From a virus, in the IMG/VR virus record IMGVR_UViG_3300045988_037273: a stretch of 33,217 bases of DNA; one strand, 5' to 3'. This document shows, in pieces, positions 17,329 through 33,217 of the stretch; positions within the stretch are counted from its first letter, which is position 1, and each line of letters begins with the position of its first letter. The notes under the pieces are model-generated. The model made no database searches and had not been told where the DNA came from. It was given only the letters and a program-made list of their open reading frames with translations. Position numbers and translations under genes: made by a program.

Positions 17329-17361
17329 ATTAGTTATTCACCATATAAAAAGGAAAGGAAA

Positions 17362-17952
17362 ATGAAGATTACACCGTTAACAATCGATTTTGACGTTACA
17401 AACGAGCAAGAAGTAGCATTTGTAAATGAGCTTATGAACCGTCTATTTGGTAGTGTGCCCCTTAAGGCTATGTCAGCGCCTACAGAAAGCCCCGTAAACA
17501 GTACAAGCGTACCGACGTTTAGCGAACCTACACGGACCGCCGCACCCGTTCAAGAACTTAAGAAGGAAGCAAATCCCGAAGCCACAGCGGTAGCTATTGC
17601 AGAGGAAACAATTACCGAAGCTATCGCGGAAGTTAAAAAGGAAATTGGAAAACCCGTAACTGTCGGAAAGCCCGTAAAGCCAAAGACTGTAAAGGAAGCC
17701 CCGCAAGCGACGATTGAACCCGAACCCGTACAAGCTCCCACCGAAGAGGAGAAAGTCCCGGAAAAAGCCGAAAACAAGCCCCTAACGGCAAAAGATATGC
17801 AGGCGTTCATGATTGACTTAATGAAATCCGGGAAAATCACCCGTCCGCAATTAACGGATATTATGTTGGAATTCGGCGGCGCATCTCTTATGCGTATCAA
17901 GCCCGAGAAGTACGAGCTGCTGAAACAGCGTATCGAAACCTATAACGATTAA
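17362..17952 (+). CDS. hypothetical protein with a Pro/Glu/Lys-rich linker
   Basis: 196 aa: a short N-terminal domain, a low-complexity linker and a folded-looking C-terminal domain. Confidence 0.7.
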   Translation: MKITPLTIDFDVTNEQEVAFVNELMNRLFGSVPLKAMSAPTESPVNSTSVPTFSEPTRTAAPVQELKKEANPEATAVAIAEETITEAIAEVKKEIGKPVTVGKPVKPKTVKEAPQATIEPEPVQAPTEEEKVPEKAENKPLTAKDMQAFMIDLMKSGKITRPQLTDIMLEFGGASLMRIKPEKYELLKQRIETYND

Positions 17953-17957
17953 AAAGA

Positions 17958-19136: not shown

Positions 19137-19141
19137 AAGAA

Positions 19142-19201
19142 GTTAACGAAAGAACCAACTTATCAGATAAAGCGTTATACTTGCATTATCAATTTAAAAA
19201 C
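19142..19201 (+). promoter_or_regulatory. class I promoter cassette (GTTAAC 19142-19147; -7 box TATACTTG 19176-19183)
   Basis: GTTAACGAAAGAACCAAC...AAAGCGTTATACTTGCATTATCAATTTAAAAAC. Confidence 0.6.
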
Positions 19202-19209
19202 AAAACGAT

Positions 19210-19512
19210 ATGAAAAGTAACAGCGGTATTTTAACGGAGAAAGAGATTCAAGAAAGAACCAAGTTTTGGAATAAAAAGCAATTCCGTACCTGGAGCAAGG
19301 AAGAACTCGAAAGAACCTCTAAAGACATGCAAAATCTTTTGGTAGCTATAAAGGGGTTCAGCGTGGACGAGATTAAGGCTATTAGAAAGTCAGACCGGTA
19401 TGGCTTTAGAGGGAAAAATGACCCGAAGTATATCATATGGCTGGCATACCGAAGCGAATTAGATTATGCTATTTCAATAGCGCCAAAAACTTTTAAAGTT
19501 AAACAAGGTTAA
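19210..19512 (+). CDS. hypothetical protein
   Basis: 100-aa basic ORF downstream of a promoter cassette. Confidence 0.7.
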   Translation: MKSNSGILTEKEIQERTKFWNKKQFRTWSKEELERTSKDMQNLLVAIKGFSVDEIKAIRKSDRYGFRGKNDPKYIIWLAYRSELDYAISIAPKTFKVKQG

Positions 19513-19567
19513 CAGAATAAACAACTTATTGATTTATTTGTTATCTTTGCGGCATCAAATTAAAAAC
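19508..19567 (+). promoter_or_regulatory. diverged class I promoter cassette (GTTAAC 19508-19513; -7 box TATCTTTG 19542-19549)
   Basis: GTTAACAGAATAAACAAC...GTTATCTTTGCGGCATCAAATTAAAAAC. Confidence 0.55.
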
Positions 19568-19612
19568 GGAACGCCCGAACCGATTAGAGGGCAAAAACAA
19601 AAATTGTAGAAT

Positions 19613-20152
19613 ATGAAAGCAATGATTAAGAACGTGAGATTGAGCTATGTTAGATTGTTTGAAGCGCAACAAGTCAACGGACAAGGAGAAGCAAGTTACA
19701 GTGTATGCTTATTGATTCCGAAGGATAGCCCGGAAGTCCCAAAGATTAGGGAAGCTATAGAACAAGAATTCAGGGGACTGAAATCCCGTTACCCGAAACT
19801 GAACGGCAAGGACCCGAAAGTATGGACTAACCCGTTACGGGATGGGGATGCAGAGAAAGACGGTGCGGAGTATCAAGGTTGCTACTTTATCAACGCAAAG
19901 CGTAAAGAGAAGCAAGGCGCGCCTATCGTAATTGACGGCAGAAAACAGTATATCACAGACCCGAACGAGGTTTATAGCGGTTCTTGGGGCAATGTAGCCG
20001 TATCATTTTACCCTTATGAGTTTACCGGGAAGTACGGTATTGGTGTAGGTTTGAACGGTGTGCAGAAGACGAGAGACGACGAAAGACTGGACGGCGGTAC
20101 AAGTATTGATGACTTCGATTTTGAAGACGAGAACGACGACCTTTTCAACTAA
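19613..20152 (+). CDS. DUF2815-family single-stranded DNA-binding protein (T7 gp2.5-like)
   Basis: N-terminal VRLSYVRLFE...YSVCLLIPK pattern and an acidic C-terminal tail DDFDFEDENDDLFN. Confidence 0.85.
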   Translation: MKAMIKNVRLSYVRLFEAQQVNGQGEASYSVCLLIPKDSPEVPKIREAIEQEFRGLKSRYPKLNGKDPKVWTNPLRDGDAEKDGAEYQGCYFINAKRKEKQGAPIVIDGRKQYITDPNEVYSGSWGNVAVSFYPYEFTGKYGIGVGLNGVQKTRDDERLDGGTSIDDFDFEDENDDLFN

Positions 20153-20177
20153 TAACTGAATTAGACAAATCAATAAC

Positions 20178-20198
20178 TGGGCGGTGTAATACCGCCCA
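20178..20198 (+). terminator. stem-loop after the SSB gene (weak terminator)
   Basis: TGGGCGGT-GTAAT-ACCGCCCA, an 8-bp stem followed by an A-run rather than a T-run. Confidence 0.35.
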
Positions 20199-20214
20199 AA
20201 AATAAAAAGCAAAA

Positions 20215-21315
20215 ATGGGAAAGTACGATTCGTACGTAAACGAAGAAGGTGTTAGAATTTCAAAGGTGACGGGAAAACCGTTGAAAAAATATAATAAGGT
20301 AAACAAGGCATACTGGGCAGCCCGTGAGGGCAAAGCAGTTGTGGGCGTACAACAACCTACAGTAGAGGTAGACCCGTTGATAGAGGAGCTTAAAAGCTAT
20401 TACAACGAGGAAGAGCTAAAGGGTATTATCGGTTTGAAGAAGGACGCGCCGCCCGTCGAACTGGTAGACATCACACCGAAGAAAAAGACATCGCTCGATG
20501 AGGGAAACACTGGTTTTCTTATTGCATCAGACTGGCATGCCGACGAAGTAGTAAAAGCCTCTACAGTATTGGGCAAAAACGAGTATAACAAGGATATCGC
20601 AGAAAAGCGTATCACTAATTTCTTTGCTAATGCCGCGTACATGATAAAGAAAAAGCCGGTAGATAACTTGGTTATCAGTTTGATTGGCGATATGATAGGC
20701 GGCTACATACACCCCGAACTCGAGCAAACGAATAGCATGTCGCCGATGCGCGGTGTTAACTTCGTTAAGAACCTAATTATTTCCGGGCTTAAATATCTGC
20801 ACGACCAGCTACCCGAGGTTAACAAAATTACTGTCATCGGTATTTGCGGAAACCATTCAAGAACTACAAAAAAGATGCAGTTTAGCAACGGTTTCGAGAT
20901 GAATTATGAGTATTTCATGTACAAGGACATCGAACGCGCCCTGACACTTATGGGGCTTACCAAATTTAGCTTTATCATTCCGGAAAGTGAATTTGCTTAT
21001 ATCGACGTGTACGGAAAGAAAGTGTTATTTGCACACGGGCATCAATTCCGCACGGCTGGCGGTATCGGAGGTATTTACCCGTCGATGATGAGGTGGTACG
21101 CAAAGATGAACCAAACGATACATATTGATAAAGCCTTTATCGGACATTATCACCAAATGGTATATACCAAAGAGGTTTGTGTTAACGGCTCTCTGAAAGG
21201 TTTCGACGCGTTCGCAATGGGGCACGGACTGGCATACGAAGAACCACAGCAAACATACGTAATTCTTAACGAAAAACGAGGATTTATTTTCTACTCACCT
21301 ATTTTTGCAGATTAA
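20215..21315 (+). CDS. calcineurin-like metallophosphoesterase
   Basis: Ordered motifs DWHAD, GDMIGG, GNHSR, AHGHQ and GHYHQ. Confidence 0.8.
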   Translation: MGKYDSYVNEEGVRISKVTGKPLKKYNKVNKAYWAAREGKAVVGVQQPTVEVDPLIEELKSYYNEEELKGIIGLKKDAPPVELVDITPKKKTSLDEGNTGFLIASDWHADEVVKASTVLGKNEYNKDIAEKRITNFFANAAYMIKKKPVDNLVISLIGDMIGGYIHPELEQTNSMSPMRGVNFVKNLIISGLKYLHDQLPEVNKITVIGICGNHSRTTKKMQFSNGFEMNYEYFMYKDIERALTLMGLTKFSFIIPESEFAYIDVYGKKVLFAHGHQFRTAGGIGGIYPSMMRWYAKMNQTIHIDKAFIGHYHQMVYTKEVCVNGSLKGFDAFAMGHGLAYEEPQQTYVILNEKRGFIFYSPIFAD

Positions 21316-21318
21316 GTT

Positions 21319-21360
21319 AAAAGGCTACTGATTGTTAAATAAATGCAATTAGTAGCCTTT
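21319..21360 (+). terminator. intrinsic terminator
   Basis: AAAAGGCTACTGATTG / CAATTAGTAGCCTTT stem with one G-U pair, followed by T-rich sequence. Confidence 0.7.
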
Positions 21361-21386
21361 CTTCTTGTTTATTAAAAACATTGCCG

Positions 21387-21394
21387 TACCTTTG
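21387..21394 (+). promoter_or_regulatory. candidate -7 box (TACCTTTG) upstream of the DNA polymerase gene
   Basis: Exact TAnnTTTG match 36 nt upstream of the ATG at 21431, with a CAATTAAAAC leader. Confidence 0.5.
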
Positions 21395-21430
21395 CCGTTA
21401 TAACAGTATTAACAATTAAAACAATGAGTT

Positions 21431-23449
21431 ATGAGACATCTGTTTATTGACTTTGAAACGTATTCCGAAACGGACATCGAAAAAGCTGGTAACTATAAAT
21501 ACTGTGAGGACGAGAATTTTGAAATACTCCTTTGCGGCTACATGTGGGACACCGATACGGACGTTACAATAATCGACCTAACAAAGCCCGGAGGGCTGGG
21601 TGAGTTCAACGAGTTGTTCACGTATGTACAGAACAACGGGGACGTTGTGATAGTAGCACACAACGCTACTTTTGAGCGTATCTGTCTGCGCGAGTACGGG
21701 TTTGACATCAACCCTATGCGTTTTTTCTGTACCGCTAACATGTCATTGTATTGCGGTATGCCTGCATCACTGGAAGCGGTATCTAATATTCTAAATCTCG
21801 ATGATAAGAAGAAGGGCACGGGAAAGAACCTTATCCGTTATTTTTCAATTCCGTGCAAGCCTACCAAAACAAACGGAGGTCGCACACGTAATTTGCCGGA
21901 ACACGCCCCCGAGGACTGGGAGGAGTTTATAGATTACCTACGTTATGATGTGCTTTCAGAAAAGGAAATATTCGGTAAGTTGTCCCGGTTTGAATTCCCG
22001 GAAGAAGAGCAGCGCATCTATGCGGCAGACCAGCGTATAAACGATTATGGCATACTGGCAGACCTCGAGCTGGCACACGCCGCGCAGGATATGGACGAAG
22101 AATATAAAGCACGCCTAACCGAAAGAGCCAAAAAAGAATTTGGACTAAGCTCCTTAAAGTCCATGCCGCAGCTTAAGGGCTTCATTGAAGAGCGTACGGG
22201 CGTGGTTATTGATTCACTCAATAAGAATAGCATCGGGGAAGTTATAAAGACCGTGACGAGCCTTAAAAACATTACCGATGAGGATAAGCAAGCAGTGTTA
22301 GACGTTATAGACCTACGCAGGGAGATAGGCAAAACATCGAACGCCAAGTACACCGCTATACTTGCAAGCGCGGGGCGGGGTAACCGTATCAGAGGTTTGT
22401 TCCGTTACTACGGTGCGAACCGTACCGGGCGATGGGCTGGGCGGTTGGTTCAACTACAGAACCTGCCGCAGAACCATATCGAGGACTTGGACGGGGCACG
22501 AGAACTGGCAAAGATGCACGATTTGGATATGATGGAAGTTATATATGACAAGCCTACACACATACTATCGCAGCTTATACGTACCGCGTTTATTGCCCCC
22601 GAAGGGTACACGTTCGCTGTAGCTGACTTCTCGGCGATTGAGGCACGTGTAATTGCCTGGGTTGCTAACGAACAATGGCGTTTGGACTTATTTAACGACC
22701 CGAAGGCTGATATATATTGCGCTTCTGCGTCTAAAATGTTCGGTGTCCCGGTGCACAAGGGCGACGACTTAAGGCAGCGCGGTAAGGTAGCGGAGCTTGC
22801 ACTCGGATACGGCGGCGGCGTCAACGCCCTTACCACAATGGATATTAAAAAAGCGTTAACAGACGAAGAAAAACCTCAAATACTGTCAAAATGGAGAGAA
22901 GCTAATAAAAAAATAGTATCTTTGTGGCGTTCGTTAGAAGACAGCGCAAAAAGATGTATCGGAACAAGGCGTGAACAAGTCTATAAGATAGACGATGTTT
23001 CAAGTATTATATTTCGATATGAGAGCGGCGCAATGACTATTGAGCTACCAAGCGGTAGAAAGCTGTTCTACCCGTCTGCAAGAATGGGAAAACGTACTAT
23101 CGAGGGCGTTAACGGCTCGTTTGAGGTTGAGGCTATATCCTACATGGGTCAAGACCAAACCTCCGGGAAATGGGTTAAGCTAAACACATACGGCGGCAAG
23201 TTAACCGAGAACGTTGTGCAGGCGATAGCCCGTGACTTGCTGGCGAATGCGATTTTTAAGGTATTTGATTTAGGTTTTAATATCGTGCTGCATGTTCACG
23301 ATGAGATAGCCGCCGAGATACCGAAAGGCGGAAACGAAGAAAGGACGCTGCAAATAATGAGCGATGCCATGTGCAGCGCCCCGAGTTGGGCAAAGGGCAT
23401 ACCATTAAGAGCAGCGGGCTATATTACTGAATATTACAAAAAAGATTAA
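21431..23449 (+). CDS. family A DNA polymerase with a 3'-5' exonuclease domain
   Basis: Exo motifs FIDFETYS, VAHNATFE and YLRYDV. Pol motif A is ADFSAIEARV, motif B is RQRGKVAELALGYGGG and motif C is HVHDE. Confidence 0.95.
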   Translation: MRHLFIDFETYSETDIEKAGNYKYCEDENFEILLCGYMWDTDTDVTIIDLTKPGGLGEFNELFTYVQNNGDVVIVAHNATFERICLREYGFDINPMRFFCTANMSLYCGMPASLEAVSNILNLDDKKKGTGKNLIRYFSIPCKPTKTNGGRTRNLPEHAPEDWEEFIDYLRYDVLSEKEIFGKLSRFEFPEEEQRIYAADQRINDYGILADLELAHAAQDMDEEYKARLTERAKKEFGLSSLKSMPQLKGFIEERTGVVIDSLNKNSIGEVIKTVTSLKNITDEDKQAVLDVIDLRREIGKTSNAKYTAILASAGRGNRIRGLFRYYGANRTGRWAGRLVQLQNLPQNHIEDLDGARELAKMHDLDMMEVIYDKPTHILSQLIRTAFIAPEGYTFAVADFSAIEARVIAWVANEQWRLDLFNDPKADIYCASASKMFGVPVHKGDDLRQRGKVAELALGYGGGVNALTTMDIKKALTDEEKPQILSKWREANKKIVSLWRSLEDSAKRCIGTRREQVYKIDDVSSIIFRYESGAMTIELPSGRKLFYPSARMGKRTIEGVNGSFEVEAISYMGQDQTSGKWVKLNTYGGKLTENVVQAIARDLLANAIFKVFDLGFNIVLHVHDEIAAEIPKGGNEERTLQIMSDAMCSAPSWAKGIPLRAAGYITEYYKKD

Positions 23450-23453
23450 ATTT

Positions 23454-25892
23454 ATGGATTTACGGAAAATGATTTTTAAAATTGCTACAGCGAGCAGCGC
23501 GAAGTCTACTTCATGGAAAAACCGTTCTTACTCATGGGACGAGTTGACCGAGAAGCTGGCAAGGGCAAAGGTTACGGATGAGACGTACCGCGAGTTTATA
23601 AGCGCGAGCAAAGCCGAGCAGGGTAATATTAAAGACGTAGGAGCCTTCATGGGCGGCGAGTTGTTCGGCAGCCGTAGAAACAAAAACAATATCGGGGAGC
23701 GTTCCATTTTGGCGCTTGACATTGACTACGGGGAAAAGAACTTTCCCGAAATGTTCTACTCGGTTATCAATTGCGCGTGTATCATTCACGGAACGCACAA
23801 GCATAACCCGAAGGCGAATACGCTCCGTTACCGTGTTATCATCCCGTTGTCCGAGCCAGTGGACGGGGAGCAATACGAAGCCATCGCCCGAAAGGTTGCG
23901 GAGTTAACGGGTATCGACTTGTACGACAGAACGACGTTTCAACCCGAGCGCTGCATGTTTTTCCCCTCGGTTTCCCGGGATGTAGACTATGAGTTTATAG
24001 ATTACTCGGCGTTTAACGAAAACCCTTTGGACGTGCAAAAGTATCTGGGCATGTACGACGATTGGAGCGATACTACCGAATGGGCATACCACAAGGACGA
24101 GAAGGGCGAAGCCCGGACGCTTGCTAAAGAACAGCAAGACCCCACACTAAAGGAGGGCAATGTAGGAGACTTTTGCCGGGCATACACGATTAGCGAGGTT
24201 ATCGCGGAATACCTATCGGACGTTTACGAACCCACCGAGCAGGCGGATAGATGGACATATACGGGTGGCTCCACATCGGGCGGCATGCTTACGTTTAATG
24301 ATATGTTTGCTTATTCGTTCCATAATAATGACCCCATCCAGGGCAACCACGTGTTCAACGCCTACGACCTTGTACGTGTACACAAGTTCGGTAAACTGGA
24401 CAAGGGCTCGGATAGAAAGAATTCCACCGAGGCTATGAACGAACTTGTAAACAAGGACCCGAAGGTAGCAGCGGCACGTGCCCGGATGCTGGCGGTTAAG
24501 GCTGGCGAAATAATGGACACTTTCGACGACGTTATAGAAGTAGAGGAGGCGACGGATGCCGATGTGGCAACAACGTATGAGGACGCAATGGCGAAACTGG
24601 AAACGGATAGGCGCGGCGCATATCTCCCATCAGCGAAGAACCTCGGTTTGATAATGAAGTATGACCCTAATCTAAAGGGGCTTATTGCACGAGACCTTTT
24701 CAAGGAACGCCGGGTTGTTACACGCGTACCTCTATGGCGCGCAAAGGATAGTTCTTTGGACTTCCAGGACGTGGACTACGCGGGCGTACGTAAACACATC
24801 GAGGACGTTTACGGCATATCGAATAGCGCAAAGATTGACGACGCCATAGCACTATCCGCAGAGATGAATTCTTTCCACCCCGTGCAGGAATACCTAACCA
24901 AATTAAAGTGGGACGGTATCGAAAGAGTTGATAAAGCGCTTATCCATGTCATGGGAGCGGAAGATAACATATACACCCGTGAAGCATTCCGTATCATGAT
25001 GGTAGGCGCGGTTAAGCGTATCTTCCAAAAGGGCTGCAAGTTCGATAGTATGTTAGTGTTACAGTCCGAGCAGGGCGCCGGGAAAAGCACATTCATCCGA
25101 AAGCTGGGCAAACACTGGTTCTCTGATAGCCTTTCGAGCATGGACGGCAAGGGGGCGTTTGAACAGCTGCAAGGTAACTGGATATTAGAGGTTGCGGAGT
25201 TGTCAGCGATGCGACGTTCAGAGGTTGAAGGCGTGAAAAACTTCATTTCCAAAACAGAGGACAGCTACAGACCGGCATACGGACGTGTTACGAAGAACTT
25301 TCCCCGGCAGTGTATCTTTGTAGGTACGACGAACCGGGACGAATTTTTAAAAGACGACACGGGCGGCAGACGGTTTTTGCCCGTGAAGGTTAAGGCAAAC
25401 GCTAATACGCATCTTATCTTTGAGAAGGGGTTCGATGATTACGTAGACCAGCTATGGGCGGAAGCCGTACAAATGTATTTCCGAAAAGTGAGTACGTTGT
25501 TATCCCGTGAAGCCGAGGAAATCGCCGAGAAAGGACGCGAAGAGCATTTCGAGGCAGACCCCCGTACTGCATCAGTAGAAGCGTATTTGAATATGCTTGT
25601 GCCGTCAGATTGGAGACGTATGTATGTGAATGAAAGGCGCATGTACTTTAGAGAATACGACGCATCGAAGGCAGACCCGGAAGACTTTACACTGGAAAAG
25701 ATGGACTTCGTATCTATTATGCAAATAGCTACAGATGTGTTCGAGATGGAAGTAGGGCGCGTAACCACTAAGGAAAGCCGCGAGATAGCCGCCATCATGT
25801 CTAAAGTACAAGGGTGGCAACGCGCGGCGAACGGAAAAACCGTCGCAGGTATCGGACGCACACGAGGATATGAGCGTATTGTTAACGGGTGA
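23454..25892 (+). CDS. primase-polymerase / VirE-D5-like helicase fusion
   Basis: N-terminal prim-pol-like region (LALDIDYG...RVIIP...CMFFPS). C-terminal P-loop SEQGAGKSTF, with Walker B ILEVAEL. Confidence 0.85.
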   Translation: MDLRKMIFKIATASSAKSTSWKNRSYSWDELTEKLARAKVTDETYREFISASKAEQGNIKDVGAFMGGELFGSRRNKNNIGERSILALDIDYGEKNFPEMFYSVINCACIIHGTHKHNPKANTLRYRVIIPLSEPVDGEQYEAIARKVAELTGIDLYDRTTFQPERCMFFPSVSRDVDYEFIDYSAFNENPLDVQKYLGMYDDWSDTTEWAYHKDEKGEARTLAKEQQDPTLKEGNVGDFCRAYTISEVIAEYLSDVYEPTEQADRWTYTGGSTSGGMLTFNDMFAYSFHNNDPIQGNHVFNAYDLVRVHKFGKLDKGSDRKNSTEAMNELVNKDPKVAAARARMLAVKAGEIMDTFDDVIEVEEATDADVATTYEDAMAKLETDRRGAYLPSAKNLGLIMKYDPNLKGLIARDLFKERRVVTRVPLWRAKDSSLDFQDVDYAGVRKHIEDVYGISNSAKIDDAIALSAEMNSFHPVQEYLTKLKWDGIERVDKALIHVMGAEDNIYTREAFRIMMVGAVKRIFQKGCKFDSMLVLQSEQGAGKSTFIRKLGKHWFSDSLSSMDGKGAFEQLQGNWILEVAELSAMRRSEVEGVKNFISKTEDSYRPAYGRVTKNFPRQCIFVGTTNRDEFLKDDTGGRRFLPVKVKANANTHLIFEKGFDDYVDQLWAEAVQMYFRKVSTLLSREAEEIAEKGREEHFEADPRTASVEAYLNMLVPSDWRRMYVNERRMYFREYDASKADPEDFTLEKMDFVSIMQIATDVFEMEVGRVTTKESREIAAIMSKVQGWQRAANGKTVAGIGRTRGYERIVNG

Positions 25893-25976
25893 TAACAGAG
25901 GGGGCATAAAAGCCTCCCCCCAAATGTTAACTAACTATTAACAGAATAACTGAATGAGATTTATTTCTTAAATGGT

Positions 25977-26052
25977 GTTAACGGAATATACAACCTATTG
26001 TTATTTGCCGTATATTTGTAATGTCAAAAGGAAATAATAACAATTTAAAAAC
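25977..26052 (+). promoter_or_regulatory. class II promoter cassette (GTTAAC 25977-25982; -7 box TATATTTG 26011-26018)
   Basis: Nearly identical to 16542-16587. It ends in the class I leader CAATTTAAAAAC. Confidence 0.6.
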
Positions 26053-26060
26053 AAAAGATT

Positions 26061-26471
26061 ATGAAAAAGTTAGTAGTTTTAGCGGTGTTAATTCTTACAA
26101 GTGTATCAATGTTTTCGCAGATTACAAGTCAAGGTAAGCCGGACGTATTAAAGTCCTTCCGCATGGGCGTTTGCAAATTGGTGGATACAGACGGGTCTAT
26201 AACCATTGAGGCAGTAACGCGTGAGACCGAAAGGTATATTATGAAAGTCTATTTGGGTACGCCCGAGGAAGCGGCGGTAACGCTTGCAAGCCTTGCAGAA
26301 TACAAGCCCGGTAAGGGCGAGACGGTGAACCTCAACAACCCGAGCAACAACGAGGCATATTTCCAAAAGCTTAACGGCACATGGGTTATCACCGAGAAGT
26401 CAACGGAGCTTTTCAGCATTGCAGTTAGCCGTGGAGAGCTTAGGAAAATGGTCGAAGCGTTGGAAAATTAA
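26061..26471 (+). CDS. exported protein of unknown function
   Basis: N-terminal signal-peptide-like MKKLVVLAVLILTSVSMFSQ with no lipobox Cys. Has its own promoter. Confidence 0.7.
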   Translation: MKKLVVLAVLILTSVSMFSQITSQGKPDVLKSFRMGVCKLVDTDGSITIEAVTRETERYIMKVYLGTPEEAAVTLASLAEYKPGKGETVNLNNPSNNEAYFQKLNGTWVITEKSTELFSIAVSRGELRKMVEALEN

Positions 26472-26511
26472 AGAAGCGTTTTTGTATATACAATTTTAAA
26501 AGGAAAAAATT

Positions 26512-26715
26512 ATGAAAAGCGGAAATTTTATTGAACTGGCGTTCGTAGTTAAAGGTGAGCTGCAAGTAGAGTATATCAACGTTGAACACGTATCGCGTAT
26601 TATGTACGTAGATGGCAAACCGTTTATTGGTATGCTGGGGCAAACCTACACGCGCCAACTTACAGAAACGAGTATGCAAGAACTAACGGAGTGTATTAAC
26701 TTGGAAAACAATTGA
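26512..26715 (+). CDS. hypothetical protein
   Basis: 67-aa ORF with an A-rich leader. Confidence 0.6.
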   Translation: MKSGNFIELAFVVKGELQVEYINVEHVSRIMYVDGKPFIGMLGQTYTRQLTETSMQELTECINLENN

Positions 26716-26721
26716 ATTAAA

Positions 26722-26883
26722 ATGGTTACTATCTTAAAAGTTATCGCGGTAAACGCAGGGGAGCGTATCTCTTATTATCCGACCCCCAACGATGGGGTGT
26801 TTCCTACCGTGGAGATGGCACGGGAGTTTTATAAAGATGAGTTCAAAACAGATAAAATAATATTGTGTTATGTCAGCAAGTGA
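26722..26883 (+). CDS. hypothetical small protein (not in the ORF track)
   Basis: 53-codon ATG ORF that fills the gap exactly and overlaps the next start by 14 nt. Confidence 0.5.
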   Translation: MVTILKVIAVNAGERISYYPTPNDGVFPTVEMAREFYKDEFKTDKIILCYVSK

Positions 26884-27616
26884 AAACGTACAGAGTTACA
26901 ACGTGGGAAAGTCCGATTATGCAAAGCATGCCATACAGCCGTGGGATATTTGGAAAGAATATAACCTCAACCCCTGGGACGCGGATATAGTGAAACGCGT
27001 GCTACGCAGCAAAGAAGGCGAGGCGCGGACGCTCGACTATGAAAAGATTATCCACATATGCAAATATCGCATTGCAGAGCTTTCTAAGGAGACTAAGGTA
27101 GCTGCACCAGTCGAGGCAGAAAAGCCAGTAGATGACGGGGAAAGCGATGATACAACGGTATTTTGCTTGGACGAGACAGAGAAGCCTGCAATGTTCTATA
27201 TTGAGGGCGAGAAGTGGAACGGTAAATATGTCGGTTACTCGGTGTTCGCGGCTGGTAACTCCCCCTATATGTACTTGGGCGTCGACGCAGAGGGGGACCA
27301 CTTATACGCAGACCTTTCGGGGTTCGTACAATGGCTTTACAACCCGGAAACGCACCTGCCGCCAAGCACGTTCAAGCTAAAGTATACCAGCCTTTTCGGC
27401 AATCACAGAAGCTCGCTAAAGATAGGGCACGTAGGTACGAACTACGAGAAGCACGACTATATCGTAACGTGCGACGGGCGGTTATTCCGTTACTTCGGTA
27501 TGAAAGGGAATAAGTTTTCCTATCGCAATATGTCGGCAAAACGTGGAGATGGTACATACCCCGAGGTCTTAAGCGATGTTAAATTAGAAAACAAGGCAAT
27601 TCAATTCACGCTATGA
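26870..27616 (+). CDS. DUF3310-like N-terminal domain protein
   Basis: SDYAKHAIQPWDIW...IVKRVLR...LDYEKIIHICKY resembles the DUF3310 pattern as I recall it. The C-terminal 150 aa are unknown. Confidence 0.55.
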   Translation: MSASENVQSYNVGKSDYAKHAIQPWDIWKEYNLNPWDADIVKRVLRSKEGEARTLDYEKIIHICKYRIAELSKETKVAAPVEAEKPVDDGESDDTTVFCLDETEKPAMFYIEGEKWNGKYVGYSVFAAGNSPYMYLGVDAEGDHLYADLSGFVQWLYNPETHLPPSTFKLKYTSLFGNHRSSLKIGHVGTNYEKHDYIVTCDGRLFRYFGMKGNKFSYRNMSAKRGDGTYPEVLSDVKLENKAIQFTL

Positions 27617-27783
27617 TAAGCAGACAAGAATACGCGTACGGTATCGGAGACGAGATAGTACATAACGGAGAGATTTTAAAGTATAGGGGCTGTTATAACG
27701 GGCACCTCTACACAACTACAGTAGACCACGAAGCCGGGGAATTCTCCAAAACAGTGGTATTTGAAAAACAAATTGAGAAATGA
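27613..27783 (+). CDS. hypothetical small protein (not in the ORF track)
   Basis: 56 codons with ATGA overlaps at both ends (27613-27616 and 27780-27783). Confidence 0.55.
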   Translation: MISRQEYAYGIGDEIVHNGEILKYRGCYNGHLYTTTVDHEAGEFSKTVVFEKQIEK

Positions 27784-28118
27784 AGGATATAATAAGCGAA
27801 AAAGATTTGGAGCGTACATTCTCCGAGAAGCTTAACCGAACAAAAAAGGTGTGGGTAATAAAACTATTATCCACCTTTATAAAAGGTTTGCCGGATAGAA
27901 TGATACTTTGCCAGGGTGGGTATGTAGGCTTCGCCGAGATAAAGACCACGGGAAAGAAGCCAACTAAGATACAGTTATTAGTACATAGCAAGTTAGAGGC
28001 TTTAGGCTTCAAAGTATTTGTTATCGACGATTTGGAAAGCAGGGACGCGGCGATAAGTTTCTTCTTAAGAAAGGTTAAGGAAATAAACAACGTACCGGGA
28101 AAAGGGTTATCTTTGTAG
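27780..28118 (+). CDS. VRR-NUC domain nuclease
   Basis: GLPDRMIL...GFAEIKTTGKKPTKIQ...LEALGFKVFV matches the VRR-NUC PD-(D/E)xK core. Confidence 0.85.
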   Translation: MKDIISEKDLERTFSEKLNRTKKVWVIKLLSTFIKGLPDRMILCQGGYVGFAEIKTTGKKPTKIQLLVHSKLEALGFKVFVIDDLESRDAAISFFLRKVKEINNVPGKGLSL

Positions 28119-28141
28119 CAGCAAATCAAAAAACAGAAATC

Positions 28142-28384
28142 ATGAAAAAGAGAAGTTTAAAGGAAGAAATAGAATACCGTTTAGGTATGTACTTCGGTAT
28201 CAAGTCGGGTGCTCTGCATGTCCGTGACGATAAATTCGGTAACACCGAGGAAATTCTAAACCAGTTGCAACGCGATATTACCCGAGACGTCAATTTCCTT
28301 TCGCGTAAAACACTGGGGTACGTATCGGATGAGCAGGATTTCAAAAGCATTTGCGTATTCTATAAAACAAAATTAATGAAGTAA
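28142..28384 (+). CDS. hypothetical protein
   Basis: 80-aa ORF. Confidence 0.6.
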   Translation: MKKRSLKEEIEYRLGMYFGIKSGALHVRDDKFGNTEEILNQLQRDITRDVNFLSRKTLGYVSDEQDFKSICVFYKTKLMK

Positions 28385-28391
28385 TAGAGCT

Positions 28392-28568
28392 ATGGTAAAC
28401 CATATAGATTTAAAGTTAAAGTGTATCGCAGGACACACCGAAATAGTATTAAACGGTCAGCGCATCAAGTGCGCTGCCGATTATGACAGAGTATTAGGAC
28501 ATATAACCCCGGCGGCACTCTATGAGTTTAGCGCCCAGTTAGCAATGATAAAAGCGATGTTATGTTAG
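28392..28568 (+). CDS. hypothetical small protein (not in the ORF track)
   Basis: 58 codons filling the gap. Overlaps the SNF2 start by 7 nt. Confidence 0.5.
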   Translation: MVNHIDLKLKCIAGHTEIVLNGQRIKCAADYDRVLGHITPAALYEFSAQLAMIKAMLC

Positions 28569-29950
28569 AAAGAAAGCAATTACATGAATACCAGGTAAAA
28601 GGTGTGCAGCATATTATCGACAATGAGTTTTGCGCGTTGTTCCTTGATATGGGTTTGGGCAAAACAGTAACTACCCTAACCGCCATCAAAGACCTTTTGG
28701 ATAATTGCATAATATCTAATTGCCTGGTAATCGCCCCGAAGAAAGTAACGCAGGTTACCTGGAGCGATGAGATTAAAGCTTGGGCACACCTTAAGGACTT
28801 GACGATTTCCGTTATCGACGGCACAGTTAAGCAGCGCCGGGAAGCCTACGAGAAGCAAGCGGACATATACGCGATTAGCCGCGATAACATTGTTTGGCTT
28901 GTGATGGAGTTCGGAGGCATTAAACTTCCCTACGATATGGTAGTTATCGATGAGCTAAGCAGTTTTAAGAACTACGCGTCAAAGCGTTTCAAAGCCCTTA
29001 GAAAGGTGCGGAAGTTCATACCGCGGGTAGTGGGTTTGACCGGTACACCATCGCCAAACGGACTTATAGACTTATTCGCCCAAATGTATTTGATAGACCA
29101 GGGTCAACGGCTCGGAAAATCAATCACAGCGTACAGAGACAGGTTTTTTAGACCAAATAAGAGGAACGGCGATATAGTGTACAGTTATGCACTGAAAAGC
29201 CCCCAGGAGGAAACAGAGAAGCAAATAAGCGACCTTATTAGCGACATAACCGTATCAATGACAGCCGAGGACTATTTGAAGATGCCCGACCGCATCAACA
29301 TATACGACCGCGTGGAGTTGCCCCCTAAAGTGCTGGCGCAATATAAGGAGTTTGAGAAGGAACAGGTATTGGAGCTTATCAACTCGAACGAACCGATAAG
29401 CGCAGCAAGTGCGGCAGCCCTATCCAATAAGCTACAGCAATTCGCAAACGGCGCGATATACGATGCCGACCGGAAGGTTATCGAACTGCACGACGAGAAG
29501 TTAGAAAAACTCGAAGAGCTTGTAGAGGCTGCAAACGGTTCGCCCGTATTGGTTGCCTACTCTTACAAGCATGACCTTGACCGAATAATGAAGAAGCTAA
29601 AGGCGTACAAGCCCGTCAAACTGGAAAAGCCCGAGCAGATAGCCGAGTGGAACGCCGGGAAGATTAAAGTGCTTGTAACGCACCCGGCGAGTGCAGGGCA
29701 CGGGCTTAACCTACAGAAAGGTGGGCATACGCTTATATGGTTCGGTAACACATGGAGCCTGGAGCTGTACATGCAGTTCAACGCCCGGTTGTATCGCCAG
29801 GGGCAAACGTACCCCGTAACCGTTCATCACATCCTAACCACCGGAACGGTAGACGAGAAGATAATAAAAGCCCTTGAAGGCAAGAAACAGACACAAGACG
29901 GGCTTATGCAGAGTATTAAAGAACTTATGGAATTTTACAGTAAGGAATGA
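28562..29950 (+). CDS. SNF2-family helicase
   Basis: Motif I DMGLGKT, motif II VIDELS, motif III GLTGTP, motif V SAGHGLNLQ, motif VI QFNARLYRQGQ. Confidence 0.92.
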   Translation: MLERKQLHEYQVKGVQHIIDNEFCALFLDMGLGKTVTTLTAIKDLLDNCIISNCLVIAPKKVTQVTWSDEIKAWAHLKDLTISVIDGTVKQRREAYEKQADIYAISRDNIVWLVMEFGGIKLPYDMVVIDELSSFKNYASKRFKALRKVRKFIPRVVGLTGTPSPNGLIDLFAQMYLIDQGQRLGKSITAYRDRFFRPNKRNGDIVYSYALKSPQEETEKQISDLISDITVSMTAEDYLKMPDRINIYDRVELPPKVLAQYKEFEKEQVLELINSNEPISAASAAALSNKLQQFANGAIYDADRKVIELHDEKLEKLEELVEAANGSPVLVAYSYKHDLDRIMKKLKAYKPVKLEKPEQIAEWNAGKIKVLVTHPASAGHGLNLQKGGHTLIWFGNTWSLELYMQFNARLYRQGQTYPVTVHHILTTGTVDEKIIKALEGKKQTQDGLMQSIKELMEFYSKE

Positions 29951-29970
29951 AAAAGCCGATAACAGTTATC

Positions 29971-29998
29971 GCAGCCCTACTACTTTTAGTAGGGCTGC
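29971..29998 (+). terminator. perfect 12-bp stem-loop after the SNF2 gene (terminator-like, no T-run)
   Basis: GCAGCCCTACTA-CTTT-TAGTAGGGCTGC. Confidence 0.45.
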
Positions 29999-30098
29999 AC
30001 CGTAGTACAGAACGCCGCGGACAGCATACAACGTAATTTCAAGCTACAACAATCAGAGTACGGGCTATCACTGAAGGATAGTTTAATACTTAAATGAC

Positions 30099-30158
30099 GT
30101 TAACGAAAGAACCAACGTAACTGAAAAAGCGTTATATTTGTATCAACGATTTAAAAAC
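30099..30158 (+). promoter_or_regulatory. class I promoter cassette (GTTAAC 30099-30104; -7 box TATATTTG 30133-30140)
   Basis: GTTAACGAAAGAACCAACGTA...AAAGCGTTATATTTGTATCAACGATTTAAAAAC. Confidence 0.65.
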
Positions 30159-30166
30159 AGAAAATT

Positions 30167-30415
30167 ATGGAAAAGTTTGAAAAGAGAGAAGCCCACCCGA
30201 TGGCAAAGTACATAGGGCGGTCGGTTAACTTCTATGGTAAGGAATTGGAAGTAGTGGGGTATAGTCACAATGAATTGACAGACGAGCCTTTGCTGATAGT
30301 AGAAGCCTTGCCCTTTGGGGGCTGGTCGGCACTGGAGCCTTCCGACGTGATATTCAAAGAATGCGAAAGCTATTGGTACGCCGGTATTAATGATTTGATA
30401 GATTGGAAACTATGA
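30167..30415 (+). CDS. hypothetical small protein (paralog family member)
   Basis: 82 aa. YIGRSVNFYGKELEVVGYS...GGWSALEPSDV is similar to the next ORF. Confidence 0.65.
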   Translation: MEKFEKREAHPMAKYIGRSVNFYGKELEVVGYSHNELTDEPLLIVEALPFGGWSALEPSDVIFKECESYWYAGINDLIDWKL

Positions 30416-30840
30416 TTAGAAACAGAGATTTTGCATTGCTGTACGCAGGGCGTACGGTATTCAATAAGAACGGCGAGTATGCCGGTGTGGTTGTCGGTTG
30501 GAACGATATGCTCGGCGTGATATTAGGTGTCAGCCATGAGGGTTGGCAGACCTGGAGCCTTACCGATATAGGCGTGTCCGATGATGAGTTTCCGTCGTAC
30601 GTATACCGCAACGCCGGGATGCTGGTAGAGCCGGTAGCGCAGTTAGAGCCGGTAGAGGCGGAAGCCCCGAAGCATATGACGATAGGCGAGCTTATCAGGG
30701 AGCACGAAGGCGTGCAGGGTATCCGATTCTCGACGGACGGGCACGGCAATGTACAAGCCGCTTATATCCGTGGCAAGCACGGAGGTATGAAGCTTGTAAG
30801 CATGGGAGACGGTTTGGAAAATGTATCATCAAAAATTTAA
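30412..30840 (+). CDS. hypothetical protein (paralog family member)
   Basis: The track start at 30403 is a TTG. The ATG at 30412 gives an ATGA overlap. Contains YAGRTVFNKNGEYAGVVVGWN...EGWQTWSLTDI. Confidence 0.65.
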   Translation: MIRNRDFALLYAGRTVFNKNGEYAGVVVGWNDMLGVILGVSHEGWQTWSLTDIGVSDDEFPSYVYRNAGMLVEPVAQLEPVEAEAPKHMTIGELIREHEGVQGIRFSTDGHGNVQAAYIRGKHGGMKLVSMGDGLENVSSKI

Positions 30841-30845
30841 AAGAC

Positions 30846-30959
30846 ATGGAAGCATTAATGTGTTTATTCGGAATAGCAATAGGTGCCGGTTTGGTAACCG
30901 GTTTGTGGTGTGTGGCTAAATTCGCAGCCCGTAACATAGACGGGATGTACGACGAGTAA
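30846..30959 (+). CDS. hypothetical small membrane peptide (not in the ORF track)
   Basis: 37 codons with one hydrophobic helix (LFGIAIGAGLVTGLWCV). Its stop overlaps the next ATG (TAATG). Confidence 0.4.
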   Translation: MEALMCLFGIAIGAGLVTGLWCVAKFAARNIDGMYDE

Positions 30960-31309
30960 TGGAAGAGGCGATAACGGTATTGTATGCCGTGGCGATAGCC
31001 ATAGTGGTAACCGCGGCAATCTTTACGGGCATAGACGTATATCCAGCGTTGAAAAATGCACGCGGCAGGAAGCCCGGGTATTTCAATATCCGGTATAAGC
31101 CGGAACATGGCACCGTGTTTTGCCGGGCGCATCTTGCGGGTAAGGTATACCGACTTGATAATAGAGCGCTGTACTTGGTCGAGATACATCCCAAGGATGC
31201 AGCCAAAGTGCACGCGTGGACGGTCCCGGAAATGGAGCTACGCGGAGTGTATTTACCGGGGAAGGGAAAATTCTATAAATTGGCATTCAAAGAAGAATTA
31301 TATGACTGA
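30959..31309 (+). CDS. hypothetical membrane-anchored protein
   Basis: 116 aa with an N-terminal TM helix (VLYAVAIAIVVTAAIF). Confidence 0.65.
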   Translation: MEEAITVLYAVAIAIVVTAAIFTGIDVYPALKNARGRKPGYFNIRYKPEHGTVFCRAHLAGKVYRLDNRALYLVEIHPKDAAKVHAWTVPEMELRGVYLPGKGKFYKLAFKEELYD

Positions 31310-31592
31310 AGAACCAAAGCTTCCCCATAAGCTTAAATGGGGCGACAGGACAGCCGCAAAGGTTGATGGAGCGGAATACCTTATCGGTATCAGAGTAGCG
31401 GGCTGCACGAGCCTGAAAGACGTGACTATAGCAGAGGTACACGAGAGTGTGGCGGACGGGGCGGGCGCATGGAGCGCGCCCGAAGGCTTAAAGAGCGCAG
31501 GCACAGATGGAGACGTGTTTATGGAGAAGCCGCGAGCCGGGGCTTATTACAAGTATATAAGGCTTAAAGACATAGCGAATGAAGAAAGTTAG
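31302..31592 (+). CDS. hypothetical protein
   Basis: 3' part of track ORF 31056..31592. The ATG at 31302 overlaps the upstream stop. The 5' part of the long ORF is Arg-rich out-of-frame sequence. Confidence 0.55.
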   Translation: MTEEPKLPHKLKWGDRTAAKVDGAEYLIGIRVAGCTSLKDVTIAEVHESVADGAGAWSAPEGLKSAGTDGDVFMEKPRAGAYYKYIRLKDIANEES

Positions 31593-31974
31593 TTTCATGG
31601 ATATGGCGGTATGCCTCAACTGCCATGTATTCATCATATGGGAATTCATACGAAGGTACGGATATACCGCCGGGGTAACAAAAGACAAGTACGGGCGCGG
31701 TTATGTGGAAGCCCGGCTTTGCAACGGTTGGATTGATAAGCTGGCAAAGTATGTAGCCGCCCAGGACTTCACGTATAAGCAGCCAATCAATAAAAGGCAG
31801 TATCTTATCAGAGACGAGGCACGCCTCGCAGAGGAGAAAAGAAACGAGCAGGACATATCGAGAACCTACGGAATTGACCCGGACGGAAGGATAAAAAGGG
31901 TATCGGCGTTCAAGAACGGAACGGTTCAGGCGTGGTATTGGCATCGGGATTCGCTCGGGTGGAAATTGACATGA
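31579..31974 (+). CDS. hypothetical protein
   Basis: 131 aa with a CLNCH motif near the N-terminus. Alternative in-frame ATGs at 31597 and 31603. Confidence 0.6.
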   Translation: MKKVSFMDMAVCLNCHVFIIWEFIRRYGYTAGVTKDKYGRGYVEARLCNGWIDKLAKYVAAQDFTYKQPINKRQYLIRDEARLAEEKRNEQDISRTYGIDPDGRIKRVSAFKNGTVQAWYWHRDSLGWKLT

Positions 31975-31990
31975 TGAAATTTATGGCATT

Positions 31991-32605
31991 ATGAGAAAGA
32001 ACATATTACATTTGTGCGCTGACTTGGGCAGCGACAGCTGGTACTACCGGCAGGACGAGAAATACAACGTTATCTGTATAGGCGAGGATATCGGGGTTGA
32101 AAACTATACCCCGGACTTCCCGGTACACGGAATAATAGCCAACCCGGTGTGTACGGAGTTTTCCACCATAGGAGGTTTCCACATAACAAAAGACCTTGAA
32201 AAGGGCATGTTTCTGGTTAACCACTGTCTGAGAATAATAGAAAGCACAAACCCGGAGTTTTGGGTAGTGGAAAACCCGGCGAACGGGAGGCTGAAAGAAT
32301 TTTTAGGCGAGCCCGATATGGTCTACCAGCCCTGGGAGTTCGGCAGCCCGTGGACTAAAAAGACCGCGCTGTGGGGGAAGTTCAACAAGCCAAACAGGAT
32401 ATACAGCCGATGGGAGGACGTTCCTAAATTGGACCTGTATACACGTGCCGGAAGGAAAAAACCGAGTCTCGCCTATCTCCACGTGTCTGCAATAGACAAA
32501 ATACCCGAGTTCCACAAGTTCAAGGACCGCGTCAAAGTAGATGCGGACTTGCGTTCCTTGTGCTCGCAGGGTTTCGCCAAAGCTTTCTACGAGGCTAACA
32601 AATAA
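31991..32605 (+). CDS. minimal C5-cytosine-methyltransferase-like protein
   Basis: Ordered motif-like segments: HLCADLGS (motif I-like), ANPVCTEFS (motif IV PCQxFS-like, with the Cys) and VVENPANG (motif VI ENV-like). At only 204 aa there is no room for a target-recognition domain. Confidence 0.5.
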   Translation: MRKNILHLCADLGSDSWYYRQDEKYNVICIGEDIGVENYTPDFPVHGIIANPVCTEFSTIGGFHITKDLEKGMFLVNHCLRIIESTNPEFWVVENPANGRLKEFLGEPDMVYQPWEFGSPWTKKTALWGKFNKPNRIYSRWEDVPKLDLYTRAGRKKPSLAYLHVSAIDKIPEFHKFKDRVKVDADLRSLCSQGFAKAFYEANK

Positions 32606-32699: not shown

Positions 32700-32746
32700 A
32701 AAAGCCCAAATCTGATTACAAAATGTCAGATTTGGGCTTTTGTTTA
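32700..32746 (+). terminator. intrinsic terminator ending the early module
   Basis: AAAAGCCCAAATCTGA / TCAGATTTGGGCTTTT, a 16-bp stem followed by TGTTT. Confidence 0.85.
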
Positions 32747-32784: not shown

Positions 32785-33042
32785 TGCACAGCTGCACAGT
32801 AAAAAATCGCTACTGTGCAGGTTGCTGTGCAGTCTAACTCCTTGTATTATAATATATTATATGTAAATGCACAGATACACAGTAAAAAGAGGGTAAAACA
32901 TTATTTTGGGAAATAGTGTATTTTAGGGGGTGTAAAATATACTATTTTCTATATTAAAGTTTAGAAAAAAAGGTCTGTGTCTGTGCAGGTGCCCCTAACT
33001 CTCTTTGCGATAGGTAGTTACCGTGCACGAATGTTCAACCGT
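32785..33042. repeat. structured non-coding element, copy B (TGCACAG/CTGTGCA dyads)
   Basis: Direct-orientation homolog of 16231-16497. Six exact TGCACAG/CTGTGCA heptamers. Confidence 0.85.
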
Positions 33043-33121
33043 GTAAATATAATTCATTTGTAAACTTTATTTGTAAAAAAGGCATAACTGCCCGTCGGTT
33101 GGTCCGGTGCGATTTGTTGCC

Positions 33122-33129
33122 TACCTTTG
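33122..33129 (+). promoter_or_regulatory. candidate -7 box (TACCTTTG) for the packaging/structural operon
   Basis: Exact TAnnTTTG match. On the circular map it lies about 190 nt upstream of the terS ATG, so the 35-bp repeats fall in the leader. Confidence 0.45.
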
Positions 33130-33162
33130 TGCCATGGTTGGAAACGACGTGAACAGCCCGGT

Positions 33163-33217
33163 TAGTCCGAACCGTCCCGATACCGGAATAGTCCGACTAG
33201 TCCGAACCGTCCCGATA
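33163..33217. repeat. 35-bp tandem repeat block / terminal redundancy (partner of 1-53)
   Basis: TAGTCCGAAC at 33163 and 33198, TAGTCCGAC at 33189. 33180-33217 is identical to 1-38. Confidence 0.9.

Follow-up and report, generated by a model that had tools for sequence, protein, structure and literature searches.

A repeated element at two module boundaries

The stretch of DNA analysed here (the window) is IMG/VR virus record IMGVR_UViG_3300045988_037273, a Bacteroides uniformis siphophage genome of 33,217 nucleotides (nt) in which every long open reading frame (ORF) lies on the + strand. According to Pfam and PHROGs annotation, a packaging, structural and lysis module extends from TerS (133) to the gene for a DUF6549 protein (end 16177), and a replication module extends from ~16772 to 32605, with genes for a DUF2800 nuclease, an Enc34-type single-stranded DNA-binding protein, PolA, a VapE-type primase-helicase, a VRR-NUC protein and an SNF2 helicase. 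The subject of this study is a ~230-nt element, built from the heptamer TGCACAG and its complement CTGTGCA, that occurs twice in this genome. Copy A (16230-16449) lies between the structural/lysis and replication modules, and copy B (32785-32987) lies after the replication module and, on the circular map, before TerS. The two copies are 16.5 kb apart and are homologous, with 74.7% identity over 229 nt.

The heptamer is found 11 times in the window, counting both strands, and all 11 occurrences fall inside the two elements. Exact TGCACAG starts at 16239, 16314, 32785, 32793 and 32868 on the + strand, and at 16259, 16271, 16443, 32813, 32825 and 32981 on the - strand. Dinucleotide-preserving shuffles give an expectation of 2.86 +/- 1.88, and a count of 11 was not reached in any of 100 shuffles; no other 7-mer of the window is as strongly clustered as CTGTGCA/TGCACAG. 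The genome-wide count thus bears out the enrichment claimed in the original prediction, which had been made from the letters alone and had placed all of these words correctly. The variant words are present as it described them (GACACAG at 16230, AACACAG at 16323, TACACAG at 32876, CTGTGT at 32975 and CTGTGC at 16438), and it quoted correctly the complementary stretches 32792-32801/32811-32820 and 32868-32882/32975-32987. Its description of eleven copies within about 450 bp was right as to the number, but the span is really two ~210-nt stretches lying 16.5 kb apart.

How is the element built? Each copy has eight words; the word is 7 nt long, and 3-5 nt of it (CAG/CACAG) are invariant. Read along the gene strand, the order is two forward words (F1 and F2), a 13-nt A-rich spacer, two reverse words (R1 and R2), a 36-nt AT-rich block, two further forward words (F3 and F4), a core, and two further reverse words (R3 and R4). 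In copy B, F1 (32785-32791, + strand) and F2 (32793-32799, + strand) are both TGCACAG, and the A-rich spacer TAAAAAATCGCTA (32800-32812, 77% AT) leads from F2 to R1 (32813-32819, - strand), which, like R2 (32825-32831, - strand), reads CTGTGCA. The conserved AT-rich block that follows (32832-32867, 81% AT) is the proposed DNA-unwinding region, with R1 and R2 on its left and F3 and F4 on its right, pointing in opposite directions. F3 (32868-32874) is TGCACAG and F4 (32876-32882) is TACACAG, both on the + strand; the conserved 92-nt core (32883-32974, 76% AT) comes next, and R3 (CTGTGT, 32975-32980) and R4 (CTGTGCA, 32981-32987) close the element on the - strand. Copy A follows the same plan. 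It has F1 (GACACAG, 16230-16236) and F2 (TGCACAG, 16239-16245) on the + strand, R1 (16259-16265) and R2 (16271-16277) on the - strand, both CTGTGCA, an AT-rich block at 16278-16313 (78% AT), and F3 (TGCACAG, 16314-16320) and F4 (AACACAG, 16323-16329) on the + strand. Its conserved core is 108 nt long (16330-16437, 70% AT), and its last words, R3 (CTGTGC, 16438-16443) and R4 (CTGTGCA, 16443-16449), both on the - strand, overlap by one base. The 36-nt block is thus 78%-81% AT in the two copies, versus 53% for the window as a whole.

The core is the part of the element that is not made of words. In copy B it holds the near-invariant blocks GGGTAAAACATTATT.TGG and CTATATTAAAGTTTAGAAA, together with a central inverted repeat that varies in sequence. 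Compared with copy B, the core of copy A carries a 10-nt insert, and ACCACTATA occurs twice in it. This doubling, at 16373-16411 (TTTACCACTATAG ... AAAACCGCTATAT), accounts for the 10-nt difference in length between A copies and B copies, and some B copies have a AAAAACCACTAT variant in place of AAAATATACTAT. A further motif, GTAAA(A)G(R)GGGGTA(A)AA, lies inside the core of both copies (32883-32905 and 16330-16352). It recurs at ~17360-17385 in the Phocaeicola phage BD26P3 (L174) as AAGTAAAGGGGGTATAATGG, so that the motif is common to this phage and the B. uniformis phages despite their different words. It is possible that this motif is a second protein site or a priming site.

Words change in concert among related phages

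The element is carried by 13 isolated phages of Bacteroides uniformis and B. xylanisolvens, and in all nine related genomes fetched it is present exactly twice, at the two positions seen in the window. Scanning IMG/VR and then searching with a profile yielded 66 distinct full-length copies. The arrangement of R1 R2, AT-rich block and F3 F4 is kept in all 66, and F2 is the best conserved word across them.

Most of these phages use the word TGCACAG. Others use TGACCAG/GCCCA[CG] (for example, BU183P1), GACACAG/CTGTGTC or TACACAG/CTGTGTA. The change from one word to another is concerted: it affects each of the eight positions in both copies, and the 3' CAG is retained in all of these variants. A concerted switch around a constant CAG is characteristic of sites that a sequence-specific factor recognises. 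One genome is mixed: in IMGVR_UViG_3300045988_024297 (L158), the first dyad of copy A is TGCACAG/CTGTGCA, and the remaining words of both copies are of the TACACAG type. This suggests either recombination between elements or tolerance of near-cognate words.

The comparison was extended to five more distant phages, whose primase-helicases are 42%-59% identical to that of the window. In four of the five, a duplicated non-coding element lies at the same two module boundaries and has the same layout, with different words: TGTTCCG in the Phocaeicola phage BD26P3, TGTTCCA in the Phocaeicola phage BM127P4, GATAGAT in the B. thetaiotaomicron phage SJC22, and TGTCATAGA in the B. caccae phage BC679P3. 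The succession of forward word, A-rich spacer and reverse word is also seen in BM127P4. The duplicated element was not found in the fifth phage, PM116P5 (L175), for which the record is partial. The two-copy arrangement is conserved across genera.

A repeated word versus a folded structure

The original prediction had offered two readings of the heptamers: sites for a DNA-binding protein, and an RNA or cruciform structure in which a nested hairpin (F2 with R1 inside F1 with R2) is followed by a long-range helix around the core. If the second reading applied, the element could be a structured leader or antitermination RNA, or a DNA cruciform. The prediction had asked whether the folds are more stable than shuffled controls, and they are, with z = -5.8 for copy B and z = -3.7 for copy A; however, the complementary strand of copy B folds no less stably (z = -5.0). 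The F2/R1 dyad can pair in 90.5% of cells across the 66 copies, and an inverted repeat is present in the centre of the core in several lineages, as a conserved structure would have it, but the arms of that central hairpin vary without compensation, and the base beside the inner stem shows no consistent covariation. The RNAalifold consensus of the 66 copies is weak (-6.6 kcal/mol) and joins F1 to R4 and R2 to F3. These are not the proposed partners, and they illustrate that forward and reverse words can pair in any combination.

Pairing between words is indeed promiscuous. When the number of complementary positions (out of 7) was averaged for each pair of words, the proposed partners F2 and R1 scored 6.60, closely followed by the non-partners F3 and R1 (6.31) and F2 and R2 (6.06). 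The proposed outer stem, F1 with R2, scored 4.69, which is poorer than the 5.12 of the non-partners F1 and R1. The same result is obtained for whole structures. In the nested scheme, the paired cells amount to 70.3% for F1:R2, 90.5% for F2:R1 and 72.7% for the long-range helix, with a covariation score of 0.152. In a crossed scheme that is incompatible with it (F1:R1 plus F2:R2), 74.9% and 92.0% are paired, with a covariation score of 0.128. Since the crossed scheme does as well as the nested one, the apparently compensatory changes reflect the change of the word and not base-pairing, and neither the nested hairpin nor the long-range helix has specific support. Moreover, complementary pairs are all that a helix requires; neither an eightfold repetition of one word nor tandem direct repeats would be called for. 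A search of the whole window against Rfam returned no match at E <= 1. With both strands folding, partners promiscuous and Rfam empty, RNA structure was rejected as the primary explanation, and we regard a structured nucleic acid of either kind as improbable. What stands of the two original readings is the protein-site part, for which the word covaries with the wing of a winged helix, as described below. There is also a methodological lesson: where inverted copies of a single word are present, "covariation" needs wrong-partner controls before RNA structure is inferred from it.

The primase-helicase and its predicted winged-helix tail

The candidate reader of the word is encoded in the replication module. 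It is an 812-amino-acid protein of VapE type (23454-25892, + strand), which we refer to as PriRep and propose as the initiator, and in which a primase, an SF3 helicase and a winged helix are fused. It matches a Pfam VapE-like domain (4e-80) and PHROG DNA helicase/primase families. Its N-terminal region matches PHROG DNA primase families (for example, phrog_9765, residues 8-438), and structural matches to the N-terminal half are the prim-pol enzymes AsfvPrimPol and NrS-1. With phmmer, residues 392-731 match 7pds_A (2e-81), which is Rep1 of SaPI1 in complex with DNA (PMC9371898). Foldseek against 7pds gives E = 1e-40, a template-modelling score of 0.78-0.80 and 34% identity. The Foldseek alignment has 448-452 columns and the Rep chains have 448-457 residues; the C-terminal domain of Rep is thus covered. 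As judged from these matches and models, the window protein is a primase-Rep fusion like PriRep5 of SaPI5.

An AlphaFold2 model of PriRep was built from 55 homologues. Because a search with the C-terminal domain alone returned only 7 fragments, homologues were collected with the full-length protein instead. The model has a mean predicted local distance difference test score of 87.6, with 76-91 in the C-terminal region. Residues 700-812 (25551-25889, + strand) are predicted to form a winged helix, with a helix at 725-734, short strands, a helix at 755-761, a recognition-type helix at 772-784 and a wing hairpin at 788-797. In the modelled hairpin, strand 788-790 is joined to strand 795-797 by a turn at 791-794. 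The codons for N793, G794, K795 and T796 (25830-25841, + strand) make up a hypervariable patch, and since the modelled turn falls there, the patch is predicted to be the tip of the wing.

The word class tracks residues of the wing

Which protein changes when the word changes? At the level of whole-protein identity, no protein of BU183P1 (L005) is specific to phages with type II words. At the level of residues, the primase-helicase stands out by its four-residue patch at 793-796. For the contingency of patch and word, 46 further loci centred on this region were added. The patch NGKT is found in 27 loci with TGCACAG, and the patches KAKS, KAKP, KARP, RQIA, GAKA and GQKA are found in another 10 loci with that word. 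GRRA (3 loci) and GRKA (1 locus) go with TGACCAG/TGGCCAG. DAKS (6 loci), EARP (1) and EAKA (1) go with TACACAG, and NARP (2) and NAKP (1) go with GACACAG. The mixed genome described above, IMGVR_UViG_3300045988_024297, has the patch DAKS.

The dipeptide at 793-794, which has nine states over 49 distinct sequences, predicts the four word classes perfectly, with a permutation-adjusted mutual information (MI) of 1.00, compared with 0.41 for the best permutation. It ranks first of 3,637 two-column windows from all testable ORFs, and the runners-up are the windows adjacent to it; the only window elsewhere to exceed 0.6 belongs to an ORF represented by just 13 sequences. Likewise, nine of the ten single columns that are most informative about word class lie within the C-terminal domain. 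Among the testable ORFs, no protein besides the primase-helicase covaries with the word. The wing sequences of the primase-helicases of the more distant phages are strongly divergent.

Could the link between patch and word be a matter of descent? One locus (L171) is informative in this respect. It has type II words and a GRKA patch, and its C-terminal domain is 90% identical to that of a type I phage versus 84% to that of BU183P1. Its other segments are likewise nearer to the type I phage than to BU183P1. Thus, type II words and a matching patch are found in a type I-like background, which argues that the link is not simply one of clonal descent.

Terminators, promoters and the operator alternative

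Both copies of the element have a similar setting. Directly upstream of copy B, the replication module ends in a hairpin that resembles an intrinsic terminator, with a 17-pair stem followed by a T run (32700-32741, + strand). An equivalent terminator-like hairpin, read by eye, precedes copy A (16186-16215) and is kept in all A copies. Each copy is followed, at a distance of ~115-135 nt, by a strongly conserved promoter-like block with a Bacteroides-type -7 box, TAnnTTTG. The conserved block downstream of copy A (16538-16592, + strand) has the -7 box TATATTTG at 16565-16572, and the related block after copy B (33095-33136) has TACCTTTG at 33122-33129. The block of copy A recurs after the primase-helicase gene (25985-26036), where there are no heptamers; the promoter-like block and the heptamer element are therefore separable. 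The recurring block can be written as ACAACCTAnnnnTATTTGCCGTATATTTGyAATGTCAAAAGGAAA. Within the element itself, no exact Bacteroides -33/-7 pair is present, and a sigma-70 scan gives background levels. A promoter inside the heptamer element was rejected as an explanation, given that the host-type -7 boxes sit downstream in the separable block.

Repeated words with dyad symmetry are typical of operators, and each copy stands directly past a terminator and ~115-135 nt before a -7 box block. The heptamers could hence be operator or activator sites for a transcription regulator, of phage or host origin, that controls the promoters of both modules. Two copies at the head of two operons would then recall OL and OR of the lambdoid phages. 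A variant would make the primase-helicase itself the regulator, with no origin function at the elements. Several observations make such a role unlikely. The small ORFs of the window have no matches in Pfam or PHROGs to helix-turn-helix, repressor-like or dedicated DNA-binding regulator proteins, and, among the testable ORFs, the primase-helicase alone covaries with the word. The words lie off the predicted promoter, the closest ending ~115 nt upstream of the -7 box, and the same promoter block stands alone at 25985-26036. Furthermore, iterons placed around an AT-rich block match the origins of the homologous Rep family.

The -7 box consensus TAnnTTTG occurs 46 times genome-wide (26.6 expected) and precedes many genes on the + strand. 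Between the promoter block of copy A and the first replication ORF (16772) there is an untranslated leader of ~190 nt (16590-16770), in which small hairpins occur (for example, ACCCGAAAGGG and GTTATT...AATAAC). One relative (L028) has a ~90-nt segment of the leader duplicated, and in another (L038) a comparable segment of ~60-80 nt is deleted. This leader could represent a distinct regulatory RNA, or a remnant. Three intergenic segments of ~90 nt each (16975-17061, 19125-19218 and 30082-30176) share 76%-83% identity with one another and lie upstream of small ORFs, overlapping or abutting TAnnTTTG boxes at 17019 and 30133. They are probably further copies of a promoter/leader unit.

Packaging, partition and inversion

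Copy B precedes the small terminase gene, and the inverted repeat formed by F3 F4 and R3 R4 encloses ~95-105 nt, a size typical of invertible promoters in Bacteroides. The element might therefore serve another DNA transaction: packaging, as a pac/terminase site; partition, as a centromere; or inversion of the segment between F3 F4 and R3 R4. All three have very little probability in our judgement. For packaging, copy A is distant from the terminase genes, and TerS does not covary with the word (maximum normalised MI of 0.26). For inversion, the orientation of the core relative to the genes is identical in all 66 distinct full-length copies, and no recombinase domain was found. For these transactions in general, the Pfam/PHROG annotation contains no ParA/ParB, integrase or invertase.

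A tandem repeat that is nearer to the terminase gene is a better candidate for the pac/terminase site. Its ~37-nt unit (ACCGGAATAGTCCGACTAGTCCGAACCGTCCCGAT[A]) spans the window junction just upstream of TerS, at 33140-33217 plus 1-58, and its copy number differs among relatives. The final 36 nt of the window are almost identical to nt 3-37, so part of this repeat may come from an overlap in the assembly of a circular or permuted genome. Tandem Repeats Finder gave no output at the end of the window, the repeat being split by the junction. In the B. caccae phage BC679P3 (L176), tandem repeats with 18/30-nt spacing and CCGGCTCCGGAACA are found at both ends of the record (1-200 and 37241-37378), and a separate 15-nt tandem repeat lies within a structural gene (4794-4884).

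Short tandem repeats are also seen at the level of codons within an early ORF of the replication module in three of the distant relatives (18430-18706 in BD26P3, 23379-23627 in L178 and 17221-17480 in PM116P5). The ORF that bears them occupies the position of the window ORF at 17362-17952, which suggests a low-complexity or repeat protein region that differs between phages.

The element as a probable replication-origin module

Taken with the homology to Rep, the covariation of word and wing points to the heptamers being iterons for the winged-helix domain of the phage's own primase-helicase, each element being a replication-origin module. We give this reading a probability of roughly 0.65. By analogy with SaPI Rep, we infer binding, melting and initiation at the elements as follows. 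First, hexamers of the helicase would assemble on the oppositely oriented pairs of words that flank the AT-rich segment. Second, the hexamers would melt this segment and then load themselves. Third, the N-terminal primase domain would prime synthesis, and the phage PolA would extend the primers. Within each word, the invariant helix 772-784 may read the constant 3' CAG, and the hypervariable wing tip at 793-796 may read the variable 5' part. The two copies may be two origins, or one may be an origin and the other a cis-acting partner site, as with ori and crr of P4. There are no other iteron-like arrays in the genome, the region downstream of the helicase gene included; the 168-nt gap after that gene (25893-26060) holds a terminator and the promoter block. 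DnaA boxes are not enriched in the window (9 observed versus 6.5 expected).

Several points weigh against the origin reading. First, there are two elements, one ~7.0 kb before the primase-helicase gene and the other ~6.9 kb after it, whereas the SaPI origin is single and adjoins rep. Second, a position after a terminator and before a promoter suits a transcriptional role equally well. Indeed, a transcriptional role, alone or coupled to replication, is possible and would be compatible with a role as an origin. Third, an origin model offers no explanation for the strongly conserved core that F3 F4 and R3 R4 enclose. Fourth, the 49 distinct sequences in four classes represent few independent switches of the word, phages of the same class are partly related by descent, and the host strain may confound the association of patch and word. 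Fifth, the covariation test was confined to ORFs other than the structural genes at 2994-15107. Finally, seven patches (NGKT, KAKP, KAKS, KARP, RQIA, GQKA and GAKA) share TGCACAG-type words, and the code that links residues to bases is therefore not one-to-one.

A bolder version of the origin reading, which we put forward tentatively and consider rather doubtful as a whole, is that an entire clade of gut Bacteroidales siphophages replicates from two dispersed, near-identical origin modules that are read by the wing tip. The hosts of this clade would be Bacteroides, Phocaeicola and, probably, Parabacteroides. The modules would lie at both operon boundaries, on roughly opposite sides of the circular map, and would act together, either by looping or handcuffing, as for ori and crr of P4, or because initiation is coupled to transcription of the modules. 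Two residues of the wing would then constitute an evolvable code for the 5' half of the iteron. If so, the wing code would set the specificity of the replicon and hence the incompatibility, or cross-talk, between co-infecting phages.

What are the implications of an origin at these elements? Bacteroides is a dominant genus of the human gut, and the replication origins and initiator specificity of its phages are essentially uncharacterised. If the origin reading is correct, the cis sites, the initiator and the candidate specificity residues are named for a family that comprises dozens of isolated phages, with many relatives in metagenomes. The logic of a self-loading helicase that doubles as the initiator, as in SaPI and P4, would reach lytic phages of Bacteroidota and would gain a dispersed, two-copy architecture. 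The four word classes with their matching wing variants are also a natural experiment on how the wing of a winged helix reads DNA. Potential uses include phage-derived replicons and shuttle vectors for Bacteroides, prediction of replication cross-talk in co-infection, and better annotation of phages.

Comparison with known systems

The searchable literature contains no description of such a two-copy element and no paper that links Bacteroides phages with iterons or an origin, and the genome announcement for EMB1/EMB2 makes no mention of repeats. The heptamer itself is too unspecific for literature on it to be informative. Several known systems nonetheless share parts of the arrangement. Classical origins, such as ori-lambda with its O protein and those of iteron plasmids, have repeated initiator words that adjoin an AT-rich unwinding element and are bound by winged-helix initiators. 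Those initiators are not helicases; they depend on the loading of host DnaB, often with DnaA boxes, and their iterons are direct repeats of 17-22 bp. The window differs from them in that DnaA boxes are not enriched.

Geminivirus Rep is an analogy at the level of specificity. In these viruses, short iterons and a few residues of the initiator covary between lineages, and cognate specificity can be inferred from sequence. The likeness goes no further, since geminivirus Rep is an unrelated HUH endonuclease of rolling-circle, single-stranded DNA replication.

Another comparison is with satellite phage P4, which requires two separated cis elements, ori and crr, which hold the same short word in both orientations, and the window has copies A and B, 16.5 kb apart, with the same word. 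To our knowledge, ori and crr are not sequence-homologous elements at operon boundaries. The P4 alpha protein and ORF904 of pRN1 share the organisation of primase, SF3 helicase and winged helix (PMC2777425); as alpha does, the window protein appears to unite primase, SF3 helicase and an origin-binding winged helix at the C terminus within one polypeptide. Unlike the P4 primase, which is DnaG-like (PMC2777425), the N-terminal domain of PriRep resembles prim-pol, and these structural neighbours suggest a primase type other than that of alpha.

The initiator helicase Cch2 of SCCmec is related to the SaPI Reps. Its C-terminal domain binds 5-nt direct-repeat iterons, and its putative origin region also holds inverted repeats (PMC7581432). 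It differs from the window system in having a single origin beside its operon, with three iterons, and in that its primase is separate, as the CCPol-MP complex.

The nearest parallel is with the SaPI Reps themselves. These are self-loading SF3 helicases that double as initiators, and their C-terminal winged helix binds iterons of 5-6 nt (PMC9371898; PMC7581432). More generally, winged helices touch DNA through helix 3 and the wing (PMC2777425). The SaPI origin has 6-12 iterons and a central AT-rich region, with at least two iterons per side in opposite directions (PMC9371898), and loading is believed to involve two hexamers, one per side (PMC9371898; PMC7581432). The window initiator is likewise an SF3 helicase, homologous to SaPI Rep by both phmmer and Foldseek, with a C-terminal winged helix in the AlphaFold2 model (residues 725-797). 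Each element has eight short words, slightly longer than those of SaPI (7 versus 5-6 nt), and R1 R2 and F3 F4 flank the 36-nt AT-rich block in opposite directions in both copies. For cognate specificity between variants of the initiator and of the iteron, the evidence here is statistical only (MI of 1.00, rank 1 of 3,637). There are differences, too. The SaPI origin is single and immediately downstream of rep, whereas the window has two copies ~7 kb away from the gene, at module boundaries. The window element has in addition a conserved core of 92-108 nt within its second convergent pair of words, and its carrier is a phage of Bacteroidota instead of a satellite of Firmicutes. Five testable features of a SaPI-type Rep/iteron origin are thus found at the window element and a location adjoining rep is not; hence, the element would appear to work like an origin of the SaPI/P4 type without being a plain member of it.

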